The notes beneath the pieces are model-generated. The model ran no database searches. It was not told the DNA's origin and saw nothing but the letters and a program-made list of their open reading frames with translations. A DNA stretch of 64,000 nucleotides, taken from the NCBI GenBank assembly GCA_021850805.1, contig JAJZKO010000003.1, positions 8,246-72,245 on the forward strand, given 5' to 3'. Source of the stretch: Candidatus Micrarchaeota archaeon. GTDB taxonomy: Archaea; Micrarchaeota; Micrarchaeia; Micrarchaeales; CABMGC01. The position numbers and the translations under genes were made by a program. Below, piece by piece: positions 25,053-30,226 of the stretch (its first letter is position 1; every line of letters starts with the position of its first letter).

Positions 25053-26552
25053 ATGGCACACATAAAATCTAGGAAACTGATTATAATCGGCATAGACTCC
25101 GCGCCTCTATGGCTGCTTAAGAAATTTTCTGCGAAGCGTTCCGGGAAAGATGGGTTCTCTGAAGTATTTGGTTTCGGGAAGAGAGGTGTAATGGACCTCG
25201 AATCAACTCTCCCCCCGATGACCGGTGCCGCGTGGCCGAGTTTCTATACCGGTCTGCAGCCTTCAAGGCACGGCTCCATGGACTTCTTTGTGCTTGACAG
25301 GCATTATACAAAACAGCTTGTATACTTCGACAATTCAAAAGGTGCGTTTTGGGATATCCTTGGAAGAAAAGGATTTGCAAGTTTCATAATCACTCCACCA
25401 ATGGCGGTCTCACCAAGCAGCGAAAAGAACGTCCAGATGATGTCCGGATGGCCCCTGGCCCCAAGATTTAATTCCAAGAAAATAGAAAAATACGCGAAAG
25501 AGAGCAGCTTTGCAGGAGAACCTGAGATAGAGAAGGAGCTAAAGGAAGGCAGGGTAACACTGGAAGAGGCGTCAGCACAGTACACCGCAAGCGCCAAAGC
25601 GAGGGCGGAGATGACAATGGAGATAGCCAAGCACGAGGATTTTGATCTGCTATTTTCGTGTTTTACTGAGACGGACAGGATGCAGCATTATTCGCTTAAC
25701 AATCGGAGATGGGAGGACTATGTAATGCCCATATACTCTGTAATATCTGATGTAATAAGGGAGATGTACAAGTACATATCGGGCAATTATGACGACTTTG
25801 CCATAATGATTGTTTCGGATCACGGCGCCCAGCCAATACAATCGAAATTTCTCATAAACTCGTGGCTGATACGTGAAGGATATGCTAACCTCAAGAAAAG
25901 CGTAGAGGAACAATACAACTCCCAAAAAAGCGGCCCTAATGCAAGATACGCCATAAGGGAACTGCTGATGAAGAGCAAGATGAGGAAGGTCTATGACAAA
26001 ATGCCAAGGAAGATGCACAATGCTGCATACAAAGTAGCCGGCAGCCTGCTCTCAGGGGCATCCGCAGGGAGCTATACCCGCATACACGATTTTGATTTCG
26101 ATATGGGGCGCACAAAAGCATTTGCATCCGTATCAAATGGGCCTGTCAGCATGATATGGATAAACGATTCCAGATTCGATACGCCCTCAGTTGCGAGTTC
26201 ATCTAAAAGAAAGGTAAAATATGAGATTAAGGGCAGGCTAATGAAGATAAAGTCTACTGGGAAAAGCGTCATCGCAAACGTTATAGACGGTGAAACTTAT
26301 TACGGAAAGAACCCCGCGTTCATAGCACCAGATCTGCTTATAGAGGCAAATCGCGGATACACGATAGACGTTTTCAACTATTCAAGTTCGTCTTTTTATA
26401 TGAAACCAGAGATATCACGGAGCGGTGATCATCAGAGGCACGGCATATTCGCTGTCAAGAACAGCGCAACGGATGCAAGATGGCCGGATAAGGGCGCACG
26501 GATAGGGGATATAAACGAATATATCCTAAGGTTTTTTGGTTCTAGGGGATGA
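25053..26552 (+). CDS. alkaline-phosphatase-superfamily protein (type I phosphodiesterase/nucleotide pyrophosphatase-like)
   Basis: IIIGIDSAP…LPPMTGAAWPSFYTGLQPSRHG…TETDRMQH…IVSDHGAQP. Confidence 0.65.
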   Translation: MAHIKSRKLIIIGIDSAPLWLLKKFSAKRSGKDGFSEVFGFGKRGVMDLESTLPPMTGAAWPSFYTGLQPSRHGSMDFFVLDRHYTKQLVYFDNSKGAFWDILGRKGFASFIITPPMAVSPSSEKNVQMMSGWPLAPRFNSKKIEKYAKESSFAGEPEIEKELKEGRVTLEEASAQYTASAKARAEMTMEIAKHEDFDLLFSCFTETDRMQHYSLNNRRWEDYVMPIYSVISDVIREMYKYISGNYDDFAIMIVSDHGAQPIQSKFLINSWLIREGYANLKKSVEEQYNSQKSGPNARYAIRELLMKSKMRKVYDKMPRKMHNAAYKVAGSLLSGASAGSYTRIHDFDFDMGRTKAFASVSNGPVSMIWINDSRFDTPSVASSSKRKVKYEIKGRLMKIKSTGKSVIANVIDGETYYGKNPAFIAPDLLIEANRGYTIDVFNYSSSSFYMKPEISRSGDHQRHGIFAVKNSATDARWPDKGARIGDINEYILRFFGSRG

Positions 26553-27613
26553 GAATGAGGGTATATCTGCTAGGTGGGCTAGGCCGCTTCGACAATTCGT
26601 CAGGCGAAGGCGTATCCACCTACATGTACGAGATATACCACGGTCTCAAGGCAAGCAAAAGCATCAAAGCAGATAAGATAGAATACCCAATACGAGATAG
26701 GACTGGCGGTGCGTACTCATGGTTCCGCATGGCGGTTATGGCATCTTTCAGCGATTATAGCGGTGCTGACATAATCCACAAAGTAGATGTAAAACCGATA
26801 AATCCTATCAGAAAAGGCAGGGCAAAAATTGTCTCTACAGCGCATGACTTTCAGCCTTTGATTGAGCCCGCGCTTGATTCTGACATGACTGTCTCGCTAA
26901 AAGGAAGGATCCGTCTTGCGCTAGAGACAAGATACTCCCTCAGGCTGATGCTAAAATCAGATTACCTGCTCGCGAATTCTACGCTTACAAAGAACGATGC
27001 TGTAAAGTTAGGCTTTGAGAGCAAGAGGGCATTTGTGATAAATCACGGGATAGGAAGGACCTACATCTCGCGTAAGATACGCAGAAAAGAGGGAAAAACG
27101 TGCGTTGTGGGATATATTGGTGCGTTCAGGTCGCGCAAAAACGTGGGGTTTGCAATACGCGCATTTAAGATGACCTCACATAAAAAGCTTGAGTTCAGGC
27201 TTTGGGGCAGCAAGAGATATGAATACGAAAAACTTGAATCTGGTGCAGGAGATGACAAACGCATACACTTTATGGGCTTCGCCCCAGCGCAAAAGATAGT
27301 GGATACATACGATAGTTTTGACGTATTTGTATTTCCCAGTCTCTATGAGGGAATGGGCTATGAGATATTGGAGGCAAAAGCGAGGCGTATACCAGTAATA
27401 ATATACAAGCACGCAAAAATTCCTGAGGAAGTAAGGCGCTACTGCATAGAGGCTAAAGACGAGTACGCAATGGCGGATGCTATCGAAAAAATATTCTCTA
27501 ACGGCCCGGATGATAAGATGCTGTCTAAGGCAATGCAAGACGCAAGAGGCTTCACTTGGGAAAAGACAATATCCAAAACTATAGATGCCTACGGAAAGAT
27601 CTGTGAGGCCTAG
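26549..27613 (+). CDS. GT-B glycosyltransferase (group 1 / GT4-like)
   Basis: C-terminal …DVFVFPSLYEGMGYEILEAKARRIPVI (EX7E region). The ATGA overlap with the upstream gene suggests co-translation. Confidence 0.75.
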   Translation: MRMRVYLLGGLGRFDNSSGEGVSTYMYEIYHGLKASKSIKADKIEYPIRDRTGGAYSWFRMAVMASFSDYSGADIIHKVDVKPINPIRKGRAKIVSTAHDFQPLIEPALDSDMTVSLKGRIRLALETRYSLRLMLKSDYLLANSTLTKNDAVKLGFESKRAFVINHGIGRTYISRKIRRKEGKTCVVGYIGAFRSRKNVGFAIRAFKMTSHKKLEFRLWGSKRYEYEKLESGAGDDKRIHFMGFAPAQKIVDTYDSFDVFVFPSLYEGMGYEILEAKARRIPVIIYKHAKIPEEVRRYCIEAKDEYAMADAIEKIFSNGPDDKMLSKAMQDARGFTWEKTISKTIDAYGKICEA

Positions 27614-28826: not shown

Positions 28827-29615
28827 CTACATATACCCAAGAGCTCTCAGCTTCTCCATGACATATGCTTTTTCCTTGTCCTGCTCTCTCCCTGCCCTCT
28901 CTTCAGTCTCTGTTACCTTAAGTTCGTCCATTATCTGCCTTATGCTCTTCGCATTCGACTTTACAGGTACGGTGCAGTGCGTGCATCCCAGGCTCCTGTA
29001 CCTGTATCCGTTGCTTGAATAATAAAGCGGGTTCACTGGTACCTTCATCTTCATTGTATATTGCCATATATCTATCTCATTCCAATCAAGTATAGGATGA
29101 ACGCGTACGTGGCCCTTCGTATCCATCTTCGATGAATAATTGTTCCAAAGCTCTGCAGGCTGATCTTTGTAATTCCACTTGAACTCAGTGTCCCTCGGGC
29201 TAAAATACCTTTCCTTGGCCCGTATCCCATGTTCATCCCTGCGTATTGATACAATAAGTGCATCAAATCCATGTTCCTTCATCACTTCCTTCAGCGCGTC
29301 CGTCTTGTTTGATCCGCAACAGCTAAATCCCGAGAGCTCGGGCTTTATTCTGCTCTTCGCAACTATCAGATCCAGATTCCATTTTTTAGCGAGATCATCC
29401 CTGAACTTATATGTTTCGGGGAAGTCTATGCCATTGTCTATGTGTATCACTGGAAAAGGCACCTTTCCAAGAAATGCCCTGCGCGCAATCATTATCATTG
29501 CCGTTGAATCCTTGCCGCCAGACCACAGCGCAGCAACATTCCCAAACTTCTCCTTTGTCTCGCGTATTATATACGCGCTTTTCTCTTCCAGATTGCCTAT
29601 ATCCTGCATTATCAT
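28827..29615 (-). CDS. cysD: CysD-like PP-loop ATP pyrophosphatase (sulfate adenylyltransferase subunit 2 family)
   Basis: PP-loop ALWSGGKDS, IRRDEHGIRAKERYFSPRD, ELWNNY, DIWQY, YRSLGC and the C-terminal ERAGR…VMEKLRALGYM. It is collinear with E. coli CysD (…ERQGR…SMELKKRQGYF, from memory). Confidence 0.8.
   Translation of the reverse strand: MIMQDIGNLEEKSAYIIRETKEKFGNVAALWSGGKDSTAMIMIARRAFLGKVPFPVIHIDNGIDFPETYKFRDDLAKKWNLDLIVAKSRIKPELSGFSCCGSNKTDALKEVMKEHGFDALIVSIRRDEHGIRAKERYFSPRDTEFKWNYKDQPAELWNNYSSKMDTKGHVRVHPILDWNEIDIWQYTMKMKVPVNPLYYSSNGYRYRSLGCTHCTVPVKSNAKSIRQIMDELKVTETEERAGREQDKEKAYVMEKLRALGYM
28833..28862. repeat. 30-nt repeat, copy 1 (3' end of the cysD-like gene)
   Basis: ATACCCAAGAGCTCTCAGCTTCTCCATGAC (plus strand) is 29/30 identical to 29916-29945. 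Confidence 0.9.
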
Positions 29616-29903
29616 TCAATCCACCTTATTCATGTTTGAGAGCCCCTTGAGGTAAATCAGGGCGCCCTCGAAGTTCTTCCCGTCCCTTACTGCAACAGGA
29701 ACCTTCGAAACAAGCTTTTTCTTCGAGTCGTAAAGCTCTACATAAGACTTGTTCATGTCATCAGCCTTCCGGAGCCCATGCTCAAAGACAACGCGATAAT
29801 ACCTTATGCTGGAGCTGCCGAGCTTCTTCCGGAACCTATCCCAGTTCCTTACATCGTTGACAGACCATAACGAATCAACTATATTATCAATTTCCTTAAC
29901 CAT
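29616..29903 (-). CDS. hypothetical 95-aa protein (no Cys, no recognisable family)
   Basis: The ORF exactly fills the space between the RHH stop (29904) and the cysD-like start (29615) with zero-nt spacers on both sides. Confidence 0.5.
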   Translation of the reverse strand: MVKEIDNIVDSLWSVNDVRNWDRFRKKLGSSSIRYYRVVFEHGLRKADDMNKSYVELYDSKKKLVSKVPVAVRDGKNFEGALIYLKGLSNMNKVD

Positions 29904-30131
29904 TCAGTCACCCAAATACCCAAGAGCCCTCAGCTTCTCCATGACTGTGCTATTCTGCTTTGCTCCACCGCGCTTCTCCATCTCAAGTTCTGCTACAGTC
30001 TCACGCAAGACATACGTAGCGTAGTCTGAGACTGATGAGAAGCCTGTCTTGCCTATGAGCCTCTCTATATTATCGAACAGTGCAGTCGGTATTGTTATTG
30101 TTGTATACTTCCTTTTTGCATGTGCCGCCAA
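29904..30131 (-). CDS. ribbon-helix-helix (CopG/Arc-like) DNA-binding protein with a CysD-like C-terminal tail
   Basis: RHH core KYTTITIPTALFDNIERLIGKTGFSSVSDYATYVLRETV, tail …EMEKRGGAKQNSTVMEKLRALGYLGD. The TTG at 30131 is the preferred start because the TATA box and palindrome lie inside the longer ATG(30212) ORF. Confidence 0.6.
   Translation of the reverse strand: MAAHAKRKYTTITIPTALFDNIERLIGKTGFSSVSDYATYVLRETVAELEMEKRGGAKQNSTVMEKLRALGYLGD
29916..29945. repeat. 30-nt repeat, copy 2 (3' end of the RHH gene)
   Basis: ATACCCAAGAGCCCTCAGCTTCTCCATGAC. Both copies encode VMEKLRALGY on the minus strand. Confidence 0.9.
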
Positions 30132-30147
30132 GATATCACGAATGTAA

Positions 30148-30167
30148 TTTAATGTTGTAACATTAAA
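30148..30167. promoter_or_regulatory. perfect 20-bp palindrome (9-bp arms, 2-bp spacer), candidate RHH operator
   Basis: TTTAATGTT-GT-AACATTAAA. It lies between the TATA-like element and the expected transcription start of the RHH/cysDN-like operon. Confidence 0.45.
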
Positions 30168-30176
30168 ATATAAAAA
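30165..30176 (-). promoter_or_regulatory. TATA-like element of the RHH/cysDN-like operon
   Basis: The minus strand reads CCTTTTTATATTTT. The core lies about 25 nt upstream of the palindrome's distal edge and about 43 nt upstream of the TTG at 30131. Confidence 0.4.
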
Positions 30177-30195
30177 GGCTCCTGTCAGCAGGCTT

Positions 30196-30226
30196 TGTGT
30201 AAAAAGTGCCATGTATGTGTAAAAAG
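30196..30226. repeat. two direct copies of TGTGTAAAAAG spaced 20 bp apart, upstream of the RHH promoter
   Basis: The copies lie at 30196-30206 and 30216-30226, two helical turns apart. Confidence 0.6.

Follow-up and report, generated by a model that had tools for sequence, protein, structure and literature searches.

Among the ribbon-helix-helix (RHH) regulators, the Mnt repressor of phage P22 carries a C-terminal oligomerisation helix which joins two dimers, the type II antitoxins ParD, RelB, CcdA and FitA combine an RHH N-terminus with a C-terminal tail that binds the partner, and NikR, MetJ and PutA sense the state of their pathway through an added domain or a fused enzyme. On the enzyme side, the CysD/CysN complex of P. 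syringae (PDB entry 1zun) associates a PP-loop protein of the 3'-phosphoadenosine-5'-phosphosulfate (PAPS) reductase fold with a GTPase of the EF-Tu type encoded next to it. Here we describe an operon found in a 64,000-nucleotide stretch of DNA (the window) from a Candidatus Micrarchaeota archaeon, whose four genes, all on the minus strand, encode an RHH regulator of 75 residues, a small protein called p95, a CysD-like enzyme and a translational-type GTPase (Table 1), and in which the regulator and the CysD-like enzyme carry the same ten residues, VMEKLRALGY, at their C-termini.

The regulator resembles Mnt by its small N-terminal RHH domain followed by a C-terminal helix, and by candidate operators made of several half-sites, which would imply more than one dimer; it differs from it by a helix of about 10 to 16 residues, a variable linker, an invariant LGY end and the presence of the same motif on enzymes of the pathway. 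With the antitoxins it shares the RHH domain prolonged by a flexible C-terminal segment, the position as first gene of the operon and the proposed binding of the tail to a downstream product, but what lies downstream are metabolic enzymes, and the proposed partner does not wrap around the tail but bears the motif itself. No toxin gene was found downstream of the RHH gene, which is followed by p95, the CysD-like enzyme and the GTPase here and by Sat, adenosine-5'-phosphosulfate (APS) kinase and others elsewhere (the PADLOC and toxin libraries were not scanned), and for this reason the protein is not an antitoxin. Like NikR, MetJ and PutA, it is an RHH protein dedicated to one pathway, and the RHH domain of NikR is its closest solved relative by profile; unlike them, it possesses only a short helix, with neither a ligand-binding domain nor an enzyme fusion. 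An RHH autoregulator heading an operon is ordinary; what is new is the existence of a dedicated family, its hallmark tail, and an enzyme tail which was rewritten and is kept identical by conversion.

The reading that we favour, with a probability of roughly one half, is that of an autorepressor with a C-terminal association helix which the Micrarchaeal enzymes copied. The 75-residue protein would bind phased AATGT/ACATT half-sites as two or more dimers and would repress, from its own promoter, the operon of the RHH, p95, CysD-like and GTPase genes. Its C-terminal amphipathic helix, placed after a flexible linker, would be a protein-association module giving dimer-dimer cooperativity on the phased operator. 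In Micrarchaeota, the mobile tail of the enzyme was rewritten at six positions to the residues of the regulator, and gene conversion keeps the two 30-nucleotide segments near-identical in the clade of this genome; the enzyme would associate with the regulator or compete for the same contact via the copied helix, and its abundance or state may feed back on the transcription of the operon. This scenario starts from the membership of the regulator in a family, its linkage to the operons, the conservation of its tail and that of the operator sequence, the direction in which the enzyme tail changed and the concerted evolution of the two segments, all of which the sequences show; its weak step is the physical contact between regulator and enzyme, while a functional link between the two through the tail is plausible.

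Table 1. Coordinates of the operon, its tail segments and its putative control elements in the window
Feature	Position	Strand	Description
EF-1alpha/CysN-like translational-type GTPase, 402 aa	27610..28818	-	GTP_EFTU, 9.9e-41; predicted to form a complex with the CysD-like protein
CysD-like PP-loop enzyme, 262 aa	28827..29615	-	Pfam PF01507 (PAPS_reduct), 1.2e-38; SGGKDS; tail EERAGREQDKEKAYVMEKLRALGYM
Tail-core segment of the enzyme	28833..28862	-	30 nt encoding VMEKLRALGY; 1083 nt downstream of the regulator copy, in direct orientation
p95, 95 aa	29616..29903	-	start directly after the RHH stop (TGA-ATG); conserved between RHH and CysD-like genes in most loci
RHH (CopG/Arc/MetJ-type) regulator	29904..30131	-	75 aa, TTG start; from the list of open reading frames and 341 homologues of about 75 aa
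Tail-core segment of the regulator	29916..29945	-	30 nt encoding VMEKLRALGY; changed in parallel with the enzyme copy between this genome and locus L002
Candidate operator	30141..30164		three half-sites 10 bp apart: AATGT 30141-30145, AATGT 30151-30155, ACATT 30160-30164
Putative archaeal TATA-box region	30165..30178	-	coding-strand sequence CCTTTTTATATTTT; adjoins the candidate operator on its upstream side

The gene of the regulator most likely starts at the TTG codon at 30131 and not at the ATG at 30212 (102 residues), since the homologues have about 75 residues and the putative TATA box and operator would fall inside the longer open reading frame (ORF). The protein is composed of an RHH core (residues 7 to 50 approximately), a variable linker (51 to 61) and the C-terminal helix VMEKLRALGY followed by LGD. 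It belongs to the RHH superfamily, of which it presents the strand (KYTTITIP), the first helix (LFDNIERLIG), the turn with its N-cap (TGFSSVSDY) and the second helix (ATYVLRET); the family profile matches the RHH domain of NikR over residues 7-47 (E = 0.0086) and Pfam RHH_1 matches 16 of 47 family members, at best with 7.8e-6. The window protein alone gave no match in Pfam, and the Arc, NikR and Omega matches of its model in Foldseek were below significance. That AlphaFold2 model predicts helices at 16-26, 34-53 and 62-69, the first two with high confidence, the linker with a predicted local distance difference test (pLDDT) value of about 64 and the short terminal helix with moderate confidence.

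Close homologues, 341 in number and about 75 residues long, come chiefly from metagenome-assembled genomes (MAGs) of Micrarchaeota. In an alignment of 32 sequences, the RHH core (RKYTTITIP...TGFSSVSDY) and the L, A, L, G and Y of the tail are invariant, and the linker varies in both length and sequence. A scan of one genome per species yielded 153 relatives, from which 80 loci were kept (L001-L080), labelled nearly all as Micrarchaeota and for a few as Marsarchaeota, Mancarchaeum, Methanothrix or just "archaeon"; in every one of these Micrarchaeal loci the regulator ends in KL(R/K)ALGY followed by 0 to 5 residues. A recent local micro-duplication, of which the preliminary description of this DNA had warned, is rejected, the tail being carried by all orthologous RHH genes, in the alignment as in the 80 loci, and by proteins far outside the phylum. 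Two of the loci, L030 and L056, belong to the same MAG (MAS1.bin34), where separate contigs each bear a complete RHH-p95-CysD-like-GTPase operon, which reflects either a duplication of the operon or a mixture of strains within the bin.

A profile search against 1.84 billion representatives (cut-off E <= 1e-3) extended the family to 1038 cluster representatives in Micrarchaeota, Thermoplasmatota and others; the named entries are CopG or Arc/MetJ regulators of Thermoplasmatota or Euryarchaeota, and one cluster member carries the label "bacterium". The consensus of this broad family is ...GTGFxSVSxYVTYVLRE, an acidic linker and then EDEEKVKERLRALGYLD. Nearly all members present the hallmark tail ...(E)KVxxRL(R/K)ALGY, and 128 of the 150 best representatives end in L..[LIMFV]GY followed by 0 to 8 residues; because it is nearly universal in the family, the tail is ancestral to the regulator. 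Architectural variants also exist (P0246, P0325, P0255, P0298, P0308 and P0351), one with two RHH-plus-tail modules in its chain and one with an RHH followed by two tandem tails, together with several proteins of about 210 residues in which an additional N-terminal RHH-like segment and a middle domain precede the RHH plus tail.

The family heads operons of sulfate activation, either of the Sat type or of the CysD/CysN type; those of Thermoplasmatota and of many metagenomic lineages encode Sat and APS kinase, those of Micrarchaeota the CysD-like enzyme and its GTPase. On Thermoplasmatota contigs, the RHH gene is followed by genes for Sat (PUA_2 plus ATP-sulfurylase), a DHH phosphoesterase, APS kinase, a sulfotransferase, a Na/sulfate symporter and Usp, and the DHH enzyme of these operons belongs to the family which was shown to be the archaeal phosphatase of 3'-phosphoadenosine-5'-phosphate (PAP) (PMC10322725). 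In 80 metagenome loci collected through the tail motif, Sat was found 54 times, APS kinase 30, DHH 24 and sulfotransferase 15, mostly directly downstream of the regulator; canonical CysD and CysN were present in 4 of the 80, and one more locus ends at the contig edge. In Palaeococcus pacificus, the CopG gene PAP_09880 was up-regulated with sulfur along with sat (PAP_09885), without comment (PMC6981617), and the two are neighbouring locus tags. Our literature search returned no paper combining ribbon-helix-helix, ATP sulfurylase and archaea, and no transcriptional regulator of archaeal sulfate activation. The family is large, unnamed, dedicated to sulfate activation, and new.

Are the two tails related, and in which direction was the resemblance established? 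The CysD-like enzyme, 66-79% identical across the phylum, ends in each of its copies with EERxGRxxDKExxYxMxKLR(A/S)LGYM; in the window its last residues are ...KAYVMEKLRALGYM, and those of the regulator ...NSTVMEKLRALGYLGD. The proposal of the preliminary description that the two proteins share a module of about 28 residues with weakly homologous flanks stands in part: BLASTP of the two window proteins gives a gapped alignment of 38 residues, 18 of them identical (E = 5e-7 for that single comparison), and the profiles of the Micrarchaeal RHH and CysD-like proteins match over 18 columns of the tail (E = 3.5e-6, probability 88%), but the RHH linker is variable across the family. The same description had derived the regulator tail from CysD, and here the comparison with canonical CysD leads to another conclusion. 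Where a canonical CysD stands beside a member of the same RHH family (with the RHH tail KERLRALGYLD), it ends in SERGxRADDKRSETAMEDRKKEGYF, as P. syringae CysD does, and it is colinear with the Micrarchaeal enzyme, without a gap in the profile alignment, to the last residue. The profile of the broad RHH family found no tail match in that of canonical CysD. Over the ten residues ending at the tyrosine, canonical CysD reads AMEDRKKEGY, the Micrarchaeal enzyme VMEKLRALGY and the broad RHH family VKERLRALGY.

The conserved canonical tail ERxGR...ME(D/E/L)(R/K)K(K/R)(E/Q)GYF is thus not what the window enzyme displays: it retains ERAGR, M, E, G and Y, but V, K, L, R, A and L have taken the places of A, D, R, K, K and E, and all six altered positions carry the residue of the regulator; after GY, the final residue is F in canonical CysD and M in Micrarchaeota. 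Three of the replacements bring the hydrophobic V, L and L to positions -9, -5 and -2 (i, i+4, i+7), which hold A, R and E in canonical CysD; the RHH family shows little or no variation at these same positions, and the three residues would form one hydrophobic face of a helix. A remodelling of the enzyme tail towards that of the regulator, and not the reverse, is well supported by these sequence comparisons, since the canonical CysD located next to the same RHH keeps AMEDRKKEGYF, without profile similarity to the RHH tail; it is seen only in Micrarchaeota. CysD as the general origin of the regulator tail is rejected by the different canonical tail, the lack of profile similarity, the colinearity of the CysD tails and the occurrence of the same tail on RHH proteins that head Sat-type operons in loci devoid of CysD.

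These comparisons also bear on partner mimicry, in which a CysD-derived tail of the regulator would dock on the surface of the GTPase or of CysD used by the enzyme's own tail, and transcription would be coupled by competition to the assembly of the complex. In its favour are the identity of ten residues in this genome, the conservation of both tails across the phylum, the co-operonic genes and a p95 protein, described below, which keeps a CysD-type tail after the loss of the enzyme. Furthermore, the mobile tail of CysD could serve as a docking arm; it appears to have been left unmodelled in the one CysD-CysN complex that has been solved, as 204 of the 325 residues of 1zun chain A have coordinates, which is the size of the aligned N-terminal stretch 28-231, and the tail aligns to 267-324. 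A docking site can consequently be read neither from 1zun nor from the AlphaFold2 monomer of the CysD-like protein, where the tail helix has low confidence (pLDDT 43-60), and the CysD tail is not treated in the literature reached by our searches. Nevertheless, the tail is present throughout the family on RHH proteins of Sat-type operons with neither CysD nor GTPase in the locus, a canonical CysD adjacent to the same RHH has another tail, and RHH-type tails are found on CysH-like and CysD-like proteins of the PAPS-reductase fold lacking an adjacent GTPase, which speaks against docking on the CysN-like GTPase in particular. We consider partner mimicry improbable.

At the DNA level, the minus-strand sequences of the regulator and enzyme segments are GTCATGGAGAAGCTGAGGGCTCTTGGGTAT and GTCATGGAGAAGCTGAGAGCTCTTGGGTAT, respectively; as already reported for this locus, they agree at 29 of 30 bases, and each encodes the shared decapeptide at a protein C-terminus. 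No further match with up to three mismatches exists in the 64 kb, and none of 100 shuffles gave any. When codons were compared in 68 genomes at the positions where both tails have the same residue, the fraction of identical codons was 0.40 within a genome versus 0.35 between genomes, so that the nucleotide sequence is generally not conserved beyond what the protein requires; in L012, for example, the tails share 17 of 30 bases and none of 6 codons. Two clades behave differently from this general picture. In the first, the window, L001 and L002 show 29, 28 and 29 matching bases of 30, with identical codons at 8/9, 7/9 and 8/9 of the same-residue positions; in the second, L013, L018 and L021 show 26, 26 and 28 of 30, with 7/8, 7/8 and 8/8. 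Both tails of L002 read TTA...GCG...GGA where both tails of the window read CTG...GCT...GGG, although the genes of these two genomes differ at 35-40% of third positions. Here the 30-mers present 1 or 2 differences between paralogues of one genome versus 4 to 6 between orthologues of different genomes. Paralogues closer to each other than orthologues are the signature of concerted evolution, which both clades exhibit, and the 29/30 identity is thereby explained: two copies in the same orientation, separated by 1.08 kb, undergo short-tract gene conversion.

The identity of the DNA, confined to two clades, is therefore ascribed to local gene conversion rather than to an RNA element. A nucleic-acid element repeated at two gene ends of one transcript had been put forward as an alternative, for which the near-identity of the segments and of their synonymous codons in this genome could be invoked. 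It is largely refuted and keeps next to no weight: most genomes share between the tails only what the protein imposes, direct repeats cannot pair with each other, and no Rfam match was obtained in the region of the two segments.

The tail was also found on other proteins of the pathway. Among 1448 gene-like ORFs from all fetched loci and the window, 135 carry the motif, and all but 2 of these are RHH proteins, enzymes of the PAPS-reductase fold, a p95 fusion or APS kinases. A second Micrarchaeal family of the PAPS-reductase fold, scoring best on CysH models, ends in HERAGRGVARERxMKxLRxLGYN in five loci, with no adjacent GTPase, whereas the canonical archaeal CysH of L130 ends in ...ECGIH. A 250-residue CysD-like protein of L053, again without a neighbouring GTPase, ends in LLLQKLRALGY. 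In L034 (2388-2741), a locus with neither CysD-like nor GTPase gene, p95 has 117 residues and ends in REKEKEELMRQKLSALGYM, a tail which appears to be the last 19 codons or so of a lost CysD-like gene fused in frame. One of the two unrelated carriers, in L055 (4946-5440, minus strand), belongs to PF04008 ("adenosine specific kinase") and is encoded divergently from RHH; it ends in ...RKKLLRDLGYKLK, probably a chance match. The APS kinases of RHH-headed Sat operons (L088-L165, e.g., L089 8841-9359) mostly end in EExxxKV(L/I)xxLxxLGY(L/I), and the solved archaeal APS kinases 7yq0 and 8a8h end in LGYL. The broad RHH profile aligned by hhalign with this kinase helix, which lies within the kinase fold, over 19 columns (E = 4e-4, probability 35%); the likeness could be mimicry, common origin or convergence in helix capping, and it is a lead, not a proof.

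Two further explanations take this distribution as their starting point. A helix (V/I)xxKL(R/K)ALGY could be a docking code through which the RHH repressor, in archaea and some bacteria, would co-assemble with the APS kinase of Sat-type operons and with the CysD-like and CysH-like enzymes of Micrarchaeota, the enzyme titrating the repressor; we regard this extension as possible, at a tentative level. Alternatively, a third factor (the degron receptor of a protease or unfoldase, a chaperone or a scaffold) may recognise both tails and ensure joint turnover or localisation. RHH antitoxins are classic protease substrates, and the motif lies at the C-terminus, or within 1 to 5 residues of it, in several unrelated proteins of one pathway; still, the conserved neighbourhood encodes no candidate receptor, and the 0 to 5 residues after the tyrosine in RHH proteins are unusual for a strict C-terminal degron, making a third factor highly unlikely. 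The HbYX and MIM1-like tails were also envisaged and set aside, the distance from tyrosine to C-terminus not being fixed and no receptor being encoded nearby.

Since the regulator tail also accompanies Sat-type operons, its primary partner cannot be CysD or the GTPase. By analogy with Mnt, the simplest general role of the tail, and a plausible one, would be the association between RHH dimers on a phased operator. Upstream of the regulator gene, the last two half-sites of the candidate operator (30151-30164) form the palindrome AATGTTGTAACATT; AATGT-N4-ACATT occurs once in the window versus 0.04 expected. Of 74 loci, 58 have the strict palindrome in the 120 nt that precede the RHH gene, with 5 other sites in 842 kb, and a further ACATT is often found 10 bp beyond it. 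A block CTTTTTATAT(A/T)T, to which we attribute a putative promoter function, is conserved across loci with the palindrome immediately after it. In Thermoplasmatota, 4 to 5 TAATTA units with a period of 10 bp reach the ribosome-binding site. The candidate operator, to which the RHH protein would bind, abuts the TATA box and overlaps the expected start site, an arrangement suggestive of autorepression in which several dimers would line up along the same side of the double helix; the predicted helix 62-69 and the phased half-sites are consistent with a Mnt-like oligomerisation. In L036 (5998-7169), from a Micrarchaeal genome, a gene for a TauE/SafE sulfite exporter replaces the CysD-like gene after the RHH gene, with a copy of the palindrome AATGTTATAACATT between them. 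In a subgroup of RHH-Sat loci (L088, L089, L096, L100, L113, L115, L117, L124, L131, L143 and L145), a conserved TTGAAAAAA...TGTATATA/TATAAA block upstream of RHH resembles a bacterial sigma-70 promoter and goes with a long leader and an AGGAG site; the family is probably also present in bacteria, or these loci use another promoter architecture.

Several points weigh against the copied-helix scenario. The LxxLGY-hydrophobic ending looks like the end of a helix with its glycine cap; if helices favour such an end, part of the resemblance could be structural convergence, and archaeal APS kinases end likewise inside a folded domain. If the converted residues of CysD are exposed and unconstrained, gene conversion alone could account for the enzyme tail. 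Mutual-information analysis of 346 RHH sequences gave no usable contact signal, subfamily structure dominating the co-variation and the tail core being invariant. Finally, it is from the position of the operator that repression, rather than activation, is suggested. Taken to their end, such objections describe a tail that serves the regulator alone, for instance in Mnt-like oligomerisation, and an enzyme likeness made of Gly-cap convergence plus neutral gene conversion, with no coupling at all. Concerted evolution is indeed demonstrable, the EE..KV..L..LGYL end of the APS kinases is part of their fold, and CysD varies at the other positions but retains the M, E, G and Y specific to its family. 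On the other hand, all six changed positions match the regulator, the changed residues are under purifying selection across the phylum although the identity of the tail DNA has mostly disappeared, a second family of the PAPS-reductase fold, with canonical relatives that end in ECGIH, carries the tail in Micrarchaeota, and few other proteins bear the motif (2 of about 1300 unrelated ORFs). We find an absence of coupling unlikely. With the same hydrophobic face held under purifying selection in the Micrarchaeal enzymes, hetero-association with the regulator, or competition for its contact, is plausible.

The operon itself is conserved in Micrarchaeota. Of the 80 loci, 57 display the complete set of four genes in the order RHH-p95-CysD-like-GTPase, a number that rises to 63 when p95 may be lacking; throughout the phylum, the regulator and the CysD-like enzyme belong to one operon. 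Mean identities across loci are about 73% for the CysD-like enzyme, 63% for RHH, 47% for the GTPase and 43% for p95. In the window, the RHH, p95 and CysD-like genes share one reading frame, with TGA-ATG junctions at 29903-29906 and 29615-29618, which suggests translational coupling; other loci have gaps of 10 to 60 nt, so this contiguous arrangement is specific to the clade. The p95 gene was found by tblastn in 68 of 81 sequences (the 80 loci and the window), around 6200-6530 in L001-L080, with the pattern NW..F...L..S..KYY...DL.KSYAELYD...VPIF...G.TIYLKGL, and is missing in the A_DKE clade; the protein has no relatives in Pfam, NCBIfam or the PDB.

The enzyme of this operon is related to CysD without being a typical member. 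It shares with the P. syringae protein the PP-loop fold, the adjacent GTPase and the colinear ERxGR...ME....GY tail, and it scores 293.7 bits on the NCBIfam subfamily model NF003587, above the cut-off of 195, but it misses the CysD equivalog models (NF009214, 217.6 vs 413; TIGR02039, 215.4 vs 396.6), and alignment to 1zun_A showed that it lacks the insertion of about 35 residues present in bacterial and canonical CysD. It also possesses an invariant CC...CxxC (C99, C100, C211 and C214), absent from bacterial and canonical archaeal CysD, which is the signature of [4Fe-4S] assimilatory APS reductases. From its sequence, the Micrarchaeal protein may not be a plain ATP sulfurylase. In most of the 80 loci, its presumed partner is encoded downstream of it, either next to it or no more than about 0.8 kb away; the scores of this GTPase, 265 bits on EF-1alpha and 222 bits on CysN, favour the former and are both under the curated cut-offs, and it has the G1 motif GNKDHGKST, which we take to be closer to EF-1alpha, where the motif is GHVDHGKST. 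It may be an independent partner derived from EF-1alpha and not a CysN orthologue. Neither Sat, APS kinase, DHH PAP phosphatase, sulfotransferase nor sulfate symporter was found in the window or at distances of up to 6 kb from the operons of Micrarchaeota. The neighbours in the window are a GT4 glycosyltransferase (26549-27613) and a protein of the type I phosphodiesterase family (25053-26552); L076 and L078 have a relative of the latter immediately in front of the RHH gene.

Together, these data provide a regulator family with its operon context, a likely operator and a hallmark helix, which makes it directly testable, for example in the co-culture of "Ca. Micrarchaeum" A_DKE (L013), and Thermococcales are a second candidate through the CopG-sat pair of Palaeococcus pacificus. 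The Micrarchaeal "CysD" emerges as an atypical enzyme, with its CC...CxxC, its EF-1alpha-like partner and no APS-consuming genes nearby. The rewriting of its tail is a clear case of small-scale concerted evolution between non-homologous genes, in which conversion is still ongoing. Should the shared docking code prove true, a core metabolic pathway of archaea would be governed by an antitoxin-like or "trigger-enzyme" feedback circuit; and if the regulator and the enzyme do bind each other through the tail, an enzyme would here be wired to its repressor in a new manner.

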